Origin: a virus | Lineage: Duplodnaviria > Caudoviricetes | Reading direction: 5' to 3' (one strand) | Virus record (IMG/VR): IMGVR_UViG_3300021399_000009 | Span: 44,607 to 108,606 of that record | DNA length: 64,000 nt | In this document: positions 6,848 through 44,693 of the stretch, in pieces | How the letters are laid out: the number at the start of each line of letters is the position of its first letter | How positions within the stretch are numbered: the stretch's first letter is position 1 | Made by a program: the position numbers and the translations under genes | The notes under the pieces: model-generated | Told to the model about the DNA's origin: nothing | What the model saw: only the letters and a program-made list of their open reading frames with translations | The model's database searches: none

Positions 6848-7117
6848 ATGAATAACGAAAAGATTATGGGATTTGACCACGCACTTGCTGATATTGACAA
6901 ACAGATTGAAGGACTGTATGCAAAGAGAGCAGAAATCGAAAACAGAATGGAACAGGTAAGAAAGGAGGCAGAAGAAAAGCACAAGGCAGAACGAACGGAG
7001 GCGTATCAGACAATCGAGGAATTGATTGATAACTACAATGAAAAGTATCACGGTAGTCTTGTGTTAATGGAGCGTTTTGATGTCAATAAATTGCTTTCTC
7101 GATACGGACTTATATGA
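6848..7117 (+). CDS. Coiled-coil hypothetical protein
   Basis: GGAGG RBS; heptad-rich. Confidence 0.7.
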   Translation: MNNEKIMGFDHALADIDKQIEGLYAKRAEIENRMEQVRKEAEEKHKAERTEAYQTIEELIDNYNEKYHGSLVLMERFDVNKLLSRYGLI

Positions 7118-7120
7118 GGT

Positions 7121-7708
7121 ATGAAAATGAAGATTGGTATAGATATAGATTGTGTTTGTGTTAATACAACAGAGTGTCTTGTTAATTATATTAATGAACG
7201 TTTACCAGTTAATCTTAACCTCAATGATATAACTACATATTCCATCGAAGCTGCTCTCCCAGAGCAGTATCGATGGATTGTAGATGCTGGATTCAGAGAT
7301 TCAAAAATGTGGAAGAAGATTGAAATGATACCATACTGTGCCGAAACAATCGAACAGTTATACAAAGATGGTTTTGAAATCTATTTTGTAACAAGTTCAC
7401 TTCCTGAGAATCTAAGAAAGAAAATTAATCATCTGACAAGAAATATGCCGTTCTTTCCAAAGGACTTTGTATGGCGACATACAATCAATATACAAGACAA
7501 GAGCTTACTTGACTTAGACATCCTAATTGATGATTGCTTGGGACACCTTTTAAATGAACGTAGACATTACAAGTCTATCGCTCTTGACTATCCTTGGAAT
7601 CAGCTTGATGAATCTAATGAACCAAATGATTTTTATAGATGCAAGAACTGGCGAGAGATATACTATTTAATCAAAGACATCGAAGACATCGAAAGGAACT
7701 GCTTCTAA
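7121..7708 (+). CDS. HAD-family 5'(3')-deoxyribonucleotidase (NT5C-like)
   Basis: IGIDIDCV motif I, FVTS, K.LL.LDILIDD, YPWN. Confidence 0.85.
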   Translation: MKMKIGIDIDCVCVNTTECLVNYINERLPVNLNLNDITTYSIEAALPEQYRWIVDAGFRDSKMWKKIEMIPYCAETIEQLYKDGFEIYFVTSSLPENLRKKINHLTRNMPFFPKDFVWRHTINIQDKSLLDLDILIDDCLGHLLNERRHYKSIALDYPWNQLDESNEPNDFYRCKNWREIYYLIKDIEDIERNCF

Positions 7709-7764
7709 AAGAGCATAACGGATATAGTTGGTGACATAATATACATATATAAGGAGAGATAATA

Positions 7765-8199
7765 ATGGAAGTTAATATTACTAAATTAAACACAAATGCA
7801 ACAATTCCCACAAGAGGTAGCTCTCAGGCTGCTGGATATGACCTTTATGCTTGCATTGATGAGCCTGTTGTGATTTATCCACACTCTACCGTTAAGATTG
7901 GCACGGGTCTTGCTATTGAAATTCCCGAAGGATATTTCGGTGCTATATTTGCAAGAAGCGGACTTGCAACAAAGAAAGGTCTTAGACCATCAAATTGCGT
8001 GGGTGTGGTGGACAGTGACTACAGAGGCGAATGTATAGTTGCACTTCACAATGATACAGATGTGTATATGTCAATTGAACCGCATGAACGAATGGCACAG
8101 CTTGTGATACAGCCTTATCTTTCGGTTGAATTTACTGAGGTTGATGAATTATCAAATACAGAACGTGGCTCTGGTGGTTTTGGTTCTTCGGGCAAGTAA
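7765..8199 (+). CDS. dut: Trimeric dUTPase
   Basis: AAGYDL, RSGLA, GVVDSDYRGE, AQL, RGSGGFGSSG. Confidence 0.97.
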   Translation: MEVNITKLNTNATIPTRGSSQAAGYDLYACIDEPVVIYPHSTVKIGTGLAIEIPEGYFGAIFARSGLATKKGLRPSNCVGVVDSDYRGECIVALHNDTDVYMSIEPHERMAQLVIQPYLSVEFTEVDELSNTERGSGGFGSSGK

Positions 8200-8225: not shown

Positions 8226-8324
8226 ATGAACGAACAAGACTGGTTGCAAGCTATAGTTTCAATACTTATACTTCGCAACGTAATCACAAAAGAAGAAGGA
8301 GAAAAAATTAAGGGGAGCAAATAA
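8226..8324 (+). CDS. 32-aa SHOCT-like peptide, candidate recombination directionality factor
   Basis: GGGAGG RBS; MNEQDWLQAIVSILILRNVITKEEGEKIKGSK; last gene of the operon, converging on the integrase; absent from the ORF track. Confidence 0.55.
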   Translation: MNEQDWLQAIVSILILRNVITKEEGEKIKGSK

Positions 8325-8338
8325 GCTCCCCTTAATTT
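8305..8338. terminator. Bidirectional terminator hairpin
   Basis: AAATTAAGGGGAGC-6-GCTCCCCTTAATTT between convergent genes. Confidence 0.85.
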
Positions 8339-10062
8339 ATTATTATAGATATATTAACGTGATATGTAAATATAACATTGTTCTTTCCGAATATTCTAAT
8401 AACATTTAATTGTTGTTCTGGTATCATTTTACAGAAGATGACCCCAGAACTACGATTAAACGAGCAATGAGATTCGCCAAAATTCATTATAATATTAAGC
8501 TCCATGTTTTTCTTATCAACTGATGTTACCTCTATACGTTCTAAAAACATACCTACAAGAATGTCAACTTCTTTTTGTGTCAACTTTCCATTGAGTATAT
8601 CATTAATAGTTTTTCTTACTTGAACTAATCTTTTTTCAATGTCTTTATATGAGGATTGATTATCTACTAACGATTTACGTTTATGTTCAAGTTCATCAAG
8701 TTCGGTACTTAAACTATCATTTCGTTTTTTAAAATCTACTTTGTTTATATCTCCGCTCATATATAAATCTAATAGCATTTCTTTCTTGTGTTCTATATTA
8801 TTCTGTTGTGCAACAATCTTGTCGATTGATTCCTTTGAGTTATTGTCGCTTAAAGCAGCTTTACATAATGACATAAATTTGTCAGTGTAATCACTTAGAT
8901 TCTTTAAGTTTGTAACAAAACATTTTGAAAGAATATCATATATTTCTGTTTCATAAATAGCAAATGTAGGACAAGTAGCCGAACCCTTGCTTCTCTTTTC
9001 TCTACATATATATTGATAGATATTTTGACCTTTGTGTAGCCTGTGACTATAACTTGTTCGCCAGAATGGGGCTTGACAATGTGTACAAAACAGTTTGCCC
9101 GAAAGAACGGAAGTCGTTTTCTGTCCTCGACCTCTACTCTTTACTTCTTCACTTCTTGCTTTAAATAAACAATTTGCCTTATTCCAAAGTTCTTCGCTTA
9201 CAATGGCAGGAACAATTTCACCTGTTTCGTCTTTGTAGACTATCCAATCACTCTCAGGCAAAAACACTTGTTCCTTGGTTCGATAATCAGCTATCTTTAC
9301 CTTGTTACCACAGTAGTACCCCTTGTACTTAGGATTGTTTAAAATACCAGATATGGTATTGTGACTAATTGGAGTACCGTTTCTTGAAGTAATCCCTTTT
9401 GCGGTAAGCTGACGTTGAATTTCTCGTAAAGCATATATTCCTGTCGCATACTGTTCAAATATAAACCTTACTATTTCAGCTTCTTTTTCATTGATAATCA
9501 ATCTACCATTGAACTTATCATATCCATAGATACGACTATTACCCATAACAACGCCCTTCTGAATAGATTGCTTGTGTCCAAACTTAACTCTTTCAGATAA
9601 CTTACGCACTTCATCTTGTGCAATAGAAGCCATTATGGTTAAACGAAACTCAGCATCACTATCTACTGTATTTATATTGTCGTTTTGAAAGAATACACCC
9701 ACACCATTTCGCAACAGCTCTCTTGTATAAGTCAAGCTATCAATTGTATTTCTTGCAAAACGAGATACCTCTTTTGTAAGAATTAAATCAAATTTGCCAT
9801 TCTTACCATCCTCAATCATACGCATAAAGTTCTCACGATTGGCTGCTGATTCACCACGAACTCTATCAACATATCCTTCAATATATGTCCAGTTAGGATG
9901 CTCTTTTATCATTTTATCAAAGTGCTCTATCTGATGTTCAACAGAACTATCCTGTTCTTCTTTGAGTGTTGACACTCTAACATAATAAGTAACTTTTATA
10001 TCAAGGTCAAAGATTGTTTTATGGTTCTGCCTCATATAATTAACAGTACTATAAATGTCCAT
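8332..10062 (-). CDS. Large serine recombinase (integrase)
   Basis: YVRVST catalytic Ser, SRFARN, recombinase domain (YGY...LNNPKYKG), Zn ribbon CTHC...C...C, coiled coil. Confidence 0.95.
   Translation of the reverse strand: MDIYSTVNYMRQNHKTIFDLDIKVTYYVRVSTLKEEQDSSVEHQIEHFDKMIKEHPNWTYIEGYVDRVRGESAANRENFMRMIEDGKNGKFDLILTKEVSRFARNTIDSLTYTRELLRNGVGVFFQNDNINTVDSDAEFRLTIMASIAQDEVRKLSERVKFGHKQSIQKGVVMGNSRIYGYDKFNGRLIINEKEAEIVRFIFEQYATGIYALREIQRQLTAKGITSRNGTPISHNTISGILNNPKYKGYYCGNKVKIADYRTKEQVFLPESDWIVYKDETGEIVPAIVSEELWNKANCLFKARSEEVKSRGRGQKTTSVLSGKLFCTHCQAPFWRTSYSHRLHKGQNIYQYICREKRSKGSATCPTFAIYETEIYDILSKCFVTNLKNLSDYTDKFMSLCKAALSDNNSKESIDKIVAQQNNIEHKKEMLLDLYMSGDINKVDFKKRNDSLSTELDELEHKRKSLVDNQSSYKDIEKRLVQVRKTINDILNGKLTQKEVDILVGMFLERIEVTSVDKKNMELNIIMNFGESHCSFNRSSGVIFCKMIPEQQLNVIRIFGKNNVIFTYHVNISIIIN
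8405..8460. other. Candidate attP site inside the integrase 3' coding region
   Basis: 26-bp arms 8405-8430 and 8435-8460 are inverted repeats (21/26) around ACAG. Confidence 0.65.
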
Positions 10063-10084
10063 AACATCGCCCCCCCTTAATATA

Positions 10085-10114
10085 ATTATACCATAGAAAA
10101 TATAGATAAATCAA
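10085..10114 (-). promoter_or_regulatory. Integrase promoter
   Basis: TTGATT-18-TATAAT with TG extended -10. Confidence 0.7.
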
Positions 10115-10121
10115 GAAAAAA

Positions 10122-10162
10122 ATAGGGGATAACAAGTTTTATTTTTACTTGTTATCCCCTAT
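10122..10162 (-). terminator. Late-operon terminator
   Basis: Perfect 16-bp IR ATAGGGGATAACAAGT followed by a T-tract on the minus strand. Confidence 0.88.
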
Positions 10163-10165
10163 AAA

Positions 10166-10288
10166 TTATCCAAAAAGAAGCTCCTTAATTTTCTGCCAAA
10201 TAGACTTCTGTTCTGTTTTTGGTAACGTTTTTGTACCAGATTTTTTTCTCCAATATTTTTTCTTTTTAACTGTAATCTTCTGTCCCAT
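10166..10288 (-). CDS. Small basic peptide (40 aa)
   Basis: GAGGTG RBS; MGQKITVKKKKYWRKK...IWQKIKELLFG. Confidence 0.45.
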   Translation of the reverse strand: MGQKITVKKKKYWRKKSGTKTLPKTEQKSIWQKIKELLFG

Positions 10289-10565
10289 ATACACCCACCT
10301 CGTTTCCATATCCGACAACTGCCGTATTTATTCCATCCGAGTCTTGACTAATCTCAACCTCAGTTTCTTCTACATATTCAAATTCATTAATAAACCTTTG
10401 AGTTTTAATAAGTAGACAAGCTGTTATCAATAAGCAGATAACTAATATAGTAAATGCAATAACAAGTCCAATTGTCATCTTGGTCATATATTTATCAAAT
10501 CTTTGTTGTGCCAAAATATAATTATCTTTCCATTTTTTATTCTCACACGCTTTGCAATCAGACAT
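10266..10565 (-). CDS. Single-TM membrane protein in the lysis cassette
   Basis: Hydrophobic helix IGLVIAFTILVICLLITACLLI. Confidence 0.7.
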   Translation of the reverse strand: MSDCKACENKKWKDNYILAQQRFDKYMTKMTIGLVIAFTILVICLLITACLLIKTQRFINEFEYVEETEVEISQDSDGINTAVVGYGNEVGVYGTEDYS

Positions 10566-44258: not shown

Positions 44259-44693
44259 TCAAAATACATTCTCAAAAATCTGAGTTTTAATTTTAAACGG
44301 CACAACCTTTGCGTGTAAAGGTAAAACAAAATCCTTTGCACTATATTCCACAAAATACACACCGTCATCCACATACGCAGACTCGTCACTTAAAGCCTTT
44401 TCGCAAATCATTTCTCCGTCATCAAACAAGGTAATCAGCATATTGCCATCATACTGTTTGACTTCTTCAATTTCTTCATACGCTTCGTCCGCAAACTCAC
44501 GCTTCATAACAACACTTTTGCCATTAATGGTAAAAGTATTAAGCAACTGACACACGCCAAGTGCATCCTGCCAATTCACTATAAGAAAAACAGAACCGTT
44601 TTCCATTGCAGAACGTACAAATTCAGATATAAGTTCATTATACTCATTGTACTCTTTGCACATAGATTCTGATATGGTCATATCAATCACCAC
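44259..44693 (-). CDS. Acidic hypothetical protein
   Basis: Fills operon; follows the upstream stop. Confidence 0.7.
   Translation of the reverse strand: MVIDMTISESMCKEYNEYNELISEFVRSAMENGSVFLIVNWQDALGVCQLLNTFTINGKSVVMKREFADEAYEEIEEVKQYDGNMLITLFDDGEMICEKALSDESAYVDDGVYFVEYSAKDFVLPLHAKVVPFKIKTQIFENVF

Follow-up and report, generated by a model that had tools for sequence, protein, structure and literature searches.

Why should the gene for a phage integrase carry, within its own 3' coding sequence, a palindrome that resembles an attachment site, and what would become of the protein if recombination took place there? The question is raised by a 64,000-nucleotide stretch of viral DNA (hereafter the window; positions 44,607 to 108,606 of IMG/VR record IMGVR_UViG_3300021399_000009), in which an inverted repeat lies near the end of a large serine recombinase gene encoding the protein P0001. 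The source record is 108,606 bp long, has direct terminal repeats and is rated complete, and so represents the unintegrated form of what appears to be a temperate phage of ~108 kb, with Clostridia of the ruminant gut as its putative host. The explanation that we favor, with a probability of about 0.8, is that the palindrome is the phage attachment site (attP) embedded in the integrase open reading frame (ORF), that its bacterial target is a gene for a small acid-soluble spore protein (SASP), and that integration removes the C-terminal tail of the integrase.

The palindrome is exactly as a preliminary description of this region had claimed, with 26-nt arms, 21 of 26 positions matching and an ACAG spacer (Table 1), and its center, which had been placed ~33 codons before the integrase stop, lies exactly 33 codons (C544-N576) upstream of it. 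It is the only inverted repeat with at least 21/26 matches at spacers of 0-8 within the window, and no such repeat arose at spacer 4 in first-order Markov simulations of the window (n=20). The center of symmetry between the GTTCTGG and CCAGAAC motifs falls at 8432-8433, and these bases are homologous to the AA or TT that is common to the two prophage junctions, attL and attR, in lysogens G001, G002 and G308 (see below). The palindrome is translated as approximately F-N-R-S-S-G-V-I-F-C-K-M-I-P-E-Q-Q-L-N.

The same design recurs among relatives. Free-phage relatives with 38-71% identity have GTTCTG-N11-core-N11-CAGAAC at the same place in the integrase, and at viral-contig loci the palindrome lies 32-37 codons before the stop in 46 of 63 cases, mostly at exactly 33. 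Across 22 distinct attP sites GTTCTG occupies positions 12-17 from the core in both arms, with ~96% complementarity, and inner positions 5-7 stay complementary through several pair types. The two arms encode different peptides and yet covary, which points to constraint at the level of the DNA. An inverted repeat could also arise as an mRNA hairpin or as a by-product of the peptide that it encodes, and as RNA this one folds at -20.9 kcal/mol (z -4.2), but complementarity that persists over different peptides, prophage boundaries of relatives that lie exactly at the center, and an actual terminator 70 nt downstream leave this alternative to a recombination site with very little credibility. Hairpin formation may be an added role of the site, one that does not explain the junction data. 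With relatives sharing the design at the same codon, and the junctions of integrated relatives mapping to its center, the earlier proposal of a serine-integrase attP stands, and we consider it very likely indeed that the palindrome is the attP of this phage. In P0002, a 99%-identical integrase, three residues are duplicated (F-N-R-I-N-R-S-S-G) at the outer edge of the body-side arm, a 9-nt length change relative to window 8440-8465 just outside the conserved half-site motif.

P0001 has the attributes of a large serine recombinase, namely a catalytic domain (Resolvase, PF00239, residues 26-171, E 9e-28), a Recombinase domain (PF07508, 192-300) and a zinc ribbon (Zn_ribbon_recom, PF13408, 320-377) with a coiled coil, in addition to a candidate attP, an imperfect 56-bp palindrome around the non-palindromic core CA/TG. 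Residues R29 and S31 are invariant in alignments of 24 and 40 sequences. An AlphaFold model made with the 40-sequence alignment (mean predicted local distance difference test score, pLDDT, 78) contains long helices at 371-490, corresponding to a coiled coil inserted in the zinc-ribbon domain, followed by a C-terminal beta unit with strands at 507-514, 519-526, 550-558 and 561-572. The palindrome had been described as following all of the catalytic and DNA-binding domains; the three Pfam domains do lie upstream of it, but the modeled beta unit (507-572) spans the site. Pfam DUF4368 was not among the P0001 matches at E <= 0.01, and the modeled strands 507-526 may be a distant counterpart of it. 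The top Foldseek matches of the model are 9dxd, 9dxh and 9y66 (9dxd_A, E 6e-22), which are serine-integrase complexes on attL and attP/attB; their structure titles name no phage, and we take them to be the SPbeta integrase. Further matches are to the phiC31, Bxb1 and LI (4kis) integrases. That P0001 would catalyze recombination between attP and a bacterial site (attB) is supported indirectly, through the junctions of its relatives.

We compared the C-termini of the best 120 homologues. The sequence ...S-G-x-I-x-x-K-M is common to all 120 listed, and the tails diverge exactly there. Sixty-one, with P0001 itself included, have a long phage-form tail (~33 residues, of the P-E-Q-Q... type), 51 have a short tail (K-K-M-I-E/D-A/S-Y-E/K...), four end in L-T-I and a few are odd. 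Contigs with long-tail homologues measure 110-150 kb, as a phage genome would, and those with short-tail homologues measure up to 419 kb and include contigs of Ruminococcus albus isolates.

Of 151 genomes of one family, 68 contain the DNA pattern of the short tail exactly once and another contains it twice, with no match to a reversed control, and 25 of 30 inspected loci are not integrases but plain, intact 66-aa genes ending ...A-G-S-V-G-G-Q-M-V-K-K-M-I-E-A-Y-E-N-G-M-K, whose product is an alpha/beta-type SASP (PF00269, E 5e-29). Because intact SASP genes end in K-K-M-I-E-A-Y-E-N-G-M-K, the short 'integrase tail' is in fact host sequence, namely the 3' end of the SASP gene. We rejected the converse reading, that K-K-M-I... 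is the native end of the integrase with attL following its stop codon, because intact SASP genes own that 3' end and because SASP 5' parts are present at the opposite end of the elements. A SASP match occurs in 88 of 121 genomes of a second family, and all but one of the 88 have exactly one; with a single match per genome, the gene that the element edits is apparently the sole one of its kind.

At 80 bacterial-genome loci, with integrases 42-56% identical to P0001, a terminator lies beyond the integrase, and after it come unrelated host genes. Seventy-two of these end in an alpha/beta-type SASP gene from the core codon onward (69 in frame in the sense 3' end, and three abutting the antisense 5' part), and the remainder are two contig ends at the junction and six others; the phage-form integrase tail is present at none of the 80. 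The L-T-I tails correspond to the antisense of the SASP 5' part (TT-A ACC ATC TGA), and at L009, L053, L057, L273 and L278 the complementary strand directly beyond the integrase end encodes M-...-G-D-L-T-S-R-E-A-G-S-I-G-G-Q-M-V. The prophage boundaries of relatives lie exactly at the homologous codon, and their C-terminus is not conserved but replaced by SASP sequence, in agreement with the earlier proposal. Insertion within the ORF of a sporulation gene is thus found in the relatives, and is predicted for the phage in the window.

A number of these loci have additional peculiarities. At seven (L039, L041, L049, L060, L064, L077 and L078) there is a second, upstream copy of the arm-encoded motif (e.g. 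...S-R-A-G-H-M-T), followed by 20-30 low-complexity residues and then the junction motif ...T-G-H-T-F-K-K-M-I; the upstream copy looks like a duplicated or relic half-site. In L075 (JAZTZC010000407.1), at ~9,800-10,300 of the locus, a single hybrid palindromic site is shared by two convergent genes for large serine recombinases. One integrase ends ...G-H-T-M-K-K-M-S-P-A-R-P..., and the complementary strand directly beyond it codes for the C-terminal region of another, related recombinase, perhaps as the result of a tandem arrangement or an att x att hybrid. The contigs of L005, L018 and L011 end at, or no more than 130 nt from, the junction codon, which would be expected if the coexistence of integrated and free forms interrupts assembly there.

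For three lysogens we could resolve both junctions. In G002:C8, a sense insertion, the SASP 5' part (78,556-78,708) continues in frame as a phage-form tail of 33 codons, and ~22.5 kb beyond it the integrase ends in the SASP 3' end. The arrangement in G001:C35, also sense and spanning ~27.7 kb, is the same, with an orphan phage-form tail of 29 codons. In the antisense insertion G308:C2, whose contig exceeds 1 Mb, the second junction is ~39 kb away and contains the SASP 3' remnant K-K-M-I-D-S-Y-K-T-Q-G-N-H, before which, on the other strand, exactly 33 codons form an orphan tail. In all three lysogens the orphan tail found at the element's far end belongs to the phage-form class, and in each the rebuilt attB restores an intact SASP reading frame and the rebuilt attP is palindromic. 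When the halves are swapped in G001 and G002, an attP of the window's design is obtained in which AA is the sole possible center. The SASP gene is split by the element in relatives G001, G002, G005, G223 and G308. By tblastn, the integrase is all that the phage in the window has in common with the G001 and G002 elements.

These insertions also suggest a rule for orientation. The cores among relatives always occupy codon positions 1-2 and are AA, CA, TG or TT, which form two complementary pairs (AA with TT, CA with TG). This set of cores, together with the occurrence of both sense and antisense lysogens, indicates that the core dinucleotide sets the polarity of recombination on a near-symmetric site. 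Relatives with AA or CA cores would insert co-oriented with the SASP gene, the two genes swapping tails in frame, and those with TT or TG cores would insert antisense to it. Five integrases that are 87-92% identical to P0001 (P0003-P0007) have Gln (CAA/CAG) at codon 544 where this phage has Cys (TGT), which, judging from the proteins, implies a CA core on the integrase strand and hence the opposite insertion orientation in very close relatives.

For the phage in the window the following course of events is predicted. The full-length 576-aa integrase expressed from the circular genome would bind both arms through GTTCTGG and CCAGAAC, 10 nt from the core, and recombine attP with an attB located at the codon that follows ...G-G-x-M-V in the single alpha/beta-type SASP gene of the host. 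From its TG core on the integrase strand, the phage is expected to enter, in antisense orientation, a SASP gene whose core codon is CAG, and the attB would read ...ATG GTT CAG AAG ATG AT... within that gene. At one junction SASP ...ATG GTT CA would be joined to window 8434 onward, and at the other the window up to 8431 would be joined to CA-GAAGATGAT. The prophage integrase would then stop after F543 (TTC-TGA; 543 aa), minus its 33-aa tail and its terminator and with no host tail, and the last ~10 residues of the SASP would be replaced, the protein ending ...M-V-Q-K-M-T-P-E-L-R-L-N-E-Q. The terminator hairpin would remain with the orphan tail, and excision would restore both genes. The preliminary description had the prophage integrase losing its tail and terminator and gaining a host-derived tail; such replacement is what is seen in the relatives, whereas in this phage a truncated product without a host tail is predicted.

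The case for this course of events is built from homologues 38-71% identical to P0001 and from two relatives, P0020 and P0021, known as proteins. P0021 (69% identical) ends ...L-I-L-Q-K-M-I-N-S-Y-K-M-Q, and P0020 (70% identical) ends ...C-I-F. One attB would account for both ends, provided that there are SASP genes that read GTT CAG at this position, with Gln instead of the first Lys (Q-type SASP genes). A search of 401 genomes for ATGGTNCARAARATGAT gave 10 matches, compared with one in the control, and three of them (L254, L255 and L256) are SASP genes; all three read GTT CAG, and L255 ends Q-K-M-I-N-S-Y-K-M-Q, which is exactly the tail of P0021. As GTT-CA is TG-AAC on the antisense strand, an integrase with a TG core reads TTC-TGA and stops, matching the end of P0020. 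The attP in the window and the Q-type genes have in common a 10-nt run, CAGAAGATGA, at and next to the core, and the numbers of identical bases among the inner 12 nt per arm (5-6 and 7-9) lie in the range seen for verified attP/attB pairs (6-8 and 6-7). Crossover of a TG core at the ATG codons of K-type SASP genes was set aside, as the Q-type genes explain both P0020 and P0021. We regard a Q-type SASP gene, entered in antisense orientation, as the probable target of this phage.

The attP and the removal of the tail could both hold with a different target, either another gene with a CA/TG core or another register in a K-type SASP gene, and possibly in a different orientation. The shortage of Q-type genes and the want of a direct junction for this phage are in keeping with such a target, as is the variety seen elsewhere in the clade: the ORFs of integrases L101 and L102 (on IMG/VR contigs, 40% identity) run straight into DNA coding for sigK region 2, and L011, L075 and L080 have non-SASP tails. 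Yet the SASP site is the one used at 72 of the 80 bacterial loci, the two nearest integrated relatives fit one Q-type attB in both orientations, and the shared 10-nt run is with Q-type genes, so that another target appears unlikely. L101 and L102 are skin-like, and their sigK part read in another frame gives ...E-D-L-I-S-I-G-T-I-G-L-I-K. That their ORFs cross the sigK junction suggests that the ORF-crossing arrangement predates SASP targeting, or that the target has been switched.

Several observations nevertheless weigh against integration of this phage as we propose it. Neither for this phage nor for a relative with more than 70% identity was an attL or attR found. Logan contigs from four runs in four studies all bridge 8432, with no loose end at 8431-8434 among those listed, bridging of this kind being uninformative as to rare integrated forms. 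The exact junction pattern (SASP side, CA and window 8434 onward) has no match in metagenome or viral contigs, and a degenerate version had two, both of them chance matches in unrelated high-GC genes. No integrase with more than 56% identity over its full length was found in the bacterial genomes searched, where there is also a frameshifted copy, L036, with 64% identity over 399 residues. P0020 and P0021 are known as proteins only, and the end of P0020 could be a contig break; and Q-type SASP genes were seen in just 3 of the 401 genomes sampled. In searches of viral contigs with P0001 and P0021 the best matches were the 71% group, and among 401 genomes of one family the best was 55%; a search for short proteins with the phage tail fused to a host 5' part gave integrase fragments only.

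The lineage might have a working or former attP and no longer integrate, living as a lytic or extrachromosomal phage in which no change of tail occurs in nature. This would account for the unintegrated form being the only one seen in the four metagenome runs from four studies, and for the lack of a lysogen in ~400 related genomes, but minority forms are lost from contigs, each species was represented by one genome in the search, and the integrase ORF is intact and the palindrome and its core are preserved. We consider such a loss of integration quite improbable, and continue to favor integration into a SASP gene through the attP within the integrase ORF.

The 33-residue tail that would be detached looks like a real structural element. 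In the AlphaFold model the att-encoded linker (530-545) has pLDDT <50, and the hairpin strands at 550-558 and 561-572 have pLDDT of ~80. Among 40 phage-form sequences the conservation of R556, a residue encoded outside the DNA site, is at least 90%, and the tail length of 32-37 codons is kept in the 46 viral-contig relatives across 38-53% identity. The modeled hairpin, the conservation of R556 and the constant length together point to a structural element rather than read-through. Whether its loss has regulatory meaning is more doubtful, and we offer this as a tentative suggestion. Less likely still is the fuller version, in which the tail is a built-in integration-state switch kept throughout a large clade of phages of gut Clostridia: the full-length protein, expressed solely from the circular genome, would be the integration form, the prophage form, with its tail removed or swapped, would have a different stability, autoinhibition or dependence on a recombination directionality factor (RDF), and flipping of the core (AA/TT, CA/TG) would choose between a long foreign tail and a near-native surrogate tail for the host's only SASP gene.

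The integrase comes last in a long block of minus-strand genes, among which are those for a tail-collar protein, two small proteins and an M15 endolysin with peptidoglycan-binding domains, and this block converges on plus-strand genes of nucleotide metabolism (NrdD, an NT5C-type nucleotidase and dUTPase). The coordinates of the features are listed in Table 1. A further promoter-like match (TTTACA-17-TATAAT, 11/12) at window 8342-8370 on the minus strand lies within the integrase tail codons and is directed at the terminator; it may be a chance occurrence in AT-rich DNA. Megablast of the region against GenBank phages gave no matches. Among related phages, which come from sheep, goat and an unlabelled run, the integrase side is collinear and the genes to the left of attP (window 6911-8159) are mosaic, the NT5C region (7072-7692) being exchanged for 1,611 nt in X6 and the dUTPase region (7776-8159) for 831 nt in X7.

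Table 1. Features of the integrase region, with coordinates in the 64,000-nt window.
Feature	Coordinates	Strand	Remarks
Bidirectional terminator hairpin	8305..8338	both	Overlaps integrase stop codon
Large serine recombinase (integrase) gene, P0001	8332..10062	-	576 aa; ORF and translation; catalytic Ser31 in R-V-S-T motif
Phage-form tail, C544-N576	8335..8433	-	33 codons that would be split from the integrase body on integration; predicted beta-hairpin 550-572
Imperfect palindrome, very likely attP, with 26-nt arms	8405..8460		Arms 8405-8430 and 8435-8460, 21/26 (81%) complementary; 4-nt spacer ACAG
Outer half-site motif GTTCTGG	8415..8421	+	10 nt from core, tail-side arm
Predicted crossover dinucleotide	8432..8433		CA on + strand, TG on integrase strand; first two bases of codon C544
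Antisense frame, would-be SASP 3' end	8432..8470	+	Q-K-M-T-P-E-L-R-L-N-E-Q-stop; read from the sequence, role putative
Outer half-site motif CCAGAAC	8444..8450	+	10 nt from core, integrase-body-side arm
Promoter-like site TTGATT-18-TATAAT with TG	10085..10114	-	Just 5' of integrase start; consensus scan only

Large serine recombinases are known to move prophages and other elements into the sporulation genes spsM, sigK, gerE and kamA, with excision rebuilding the gene (PMC4191935, PMC5499854, PMC5595907, PMC6957869). SPbeta in spsM (integrase SprA, RDF SprB) and skin in sigK (SpoIVCA) of B. subtilis, and gin in gerE (GirC/GirX) of B. cereus, resemble the present clade in inserting inside a sporulation ORF; the clade differs from them in that the target is an alpha/beta SASP gene, the attP lies in the recombinase ORF so that the recombinase itself changes, and both orientations are used. 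An attP inside the integrase ORF, and translated, is also a property of the archaeal SSV-type 'suicidal' tyrosine integrases, whose genes are split by integration into inactive halves (PMC7253208, PMC8371274). The SSV-type enzymes are tyrosine recombinases that are left as two inactive pseudogenes, whereas here the fold is that of a serine recombinase and only residues 544-576 of 576 would be detached. With just the last 33 residues removed, and the Pfam domains and coiled coil intact, the prophage copy should still be able to excise.

In mycobacteriophages, Broussard and colleagues reportedly described in 2013 an integration-dependent immunity in which attP lies inside the repressor gene, with a tyrosine integrase and a C-terminal degradation tag. 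The parallel with these switches drawn in the preliminary description applies to the logic, in that the integration state edits the C-terminus of a phage protein, but not to the family, and the edited gene here is the integrase rather than the repressor. The clostridial large serine recombinases TnpX of Tn4451/Tn4453 and TndX of Tn5397 belong to elements whose circular joint creates a promoter and leaves the protein unchanged, so that expression depends on the circular or integrated state, and DUF4368 is typical of them. P0001 is likewise a large serine recombinase with Clostridia as putative hosts, but here it is the protein itself that would change, and DUF4368 is not detected. A full-text literature search found no report of SASP genes as the target of a serine recombinase, and none of a serine integrase with attP in its own ORF.

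Serine integrases are leading tools for insertion of large DNA, and the control of their directionality is under active study; the clade, natural and widespread, would offer two isoforms, one full-length and one lacking the 33 aa, for comparisons of integration, excision and stability. Pipelines that predict att sites would have to allow for attP sites within the recombinase ORF and for chimeric copies of the gene in prophages. The AA/TT and CA/TG cores on a near-symmetric site provide a natural illustration of how the central dinucleotide sets polarity. The findings describe a family of phages and islands that edits, in either orientation, the single gene that encodes the main spore DNA-protecting protein of gut spore-formers, and so extend the list of interrupted sporulation genes. 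If the tentative switch were real, the enzyme would 'know' which reaction is due, and the prophage state could be tied to the protection of spore DNA.

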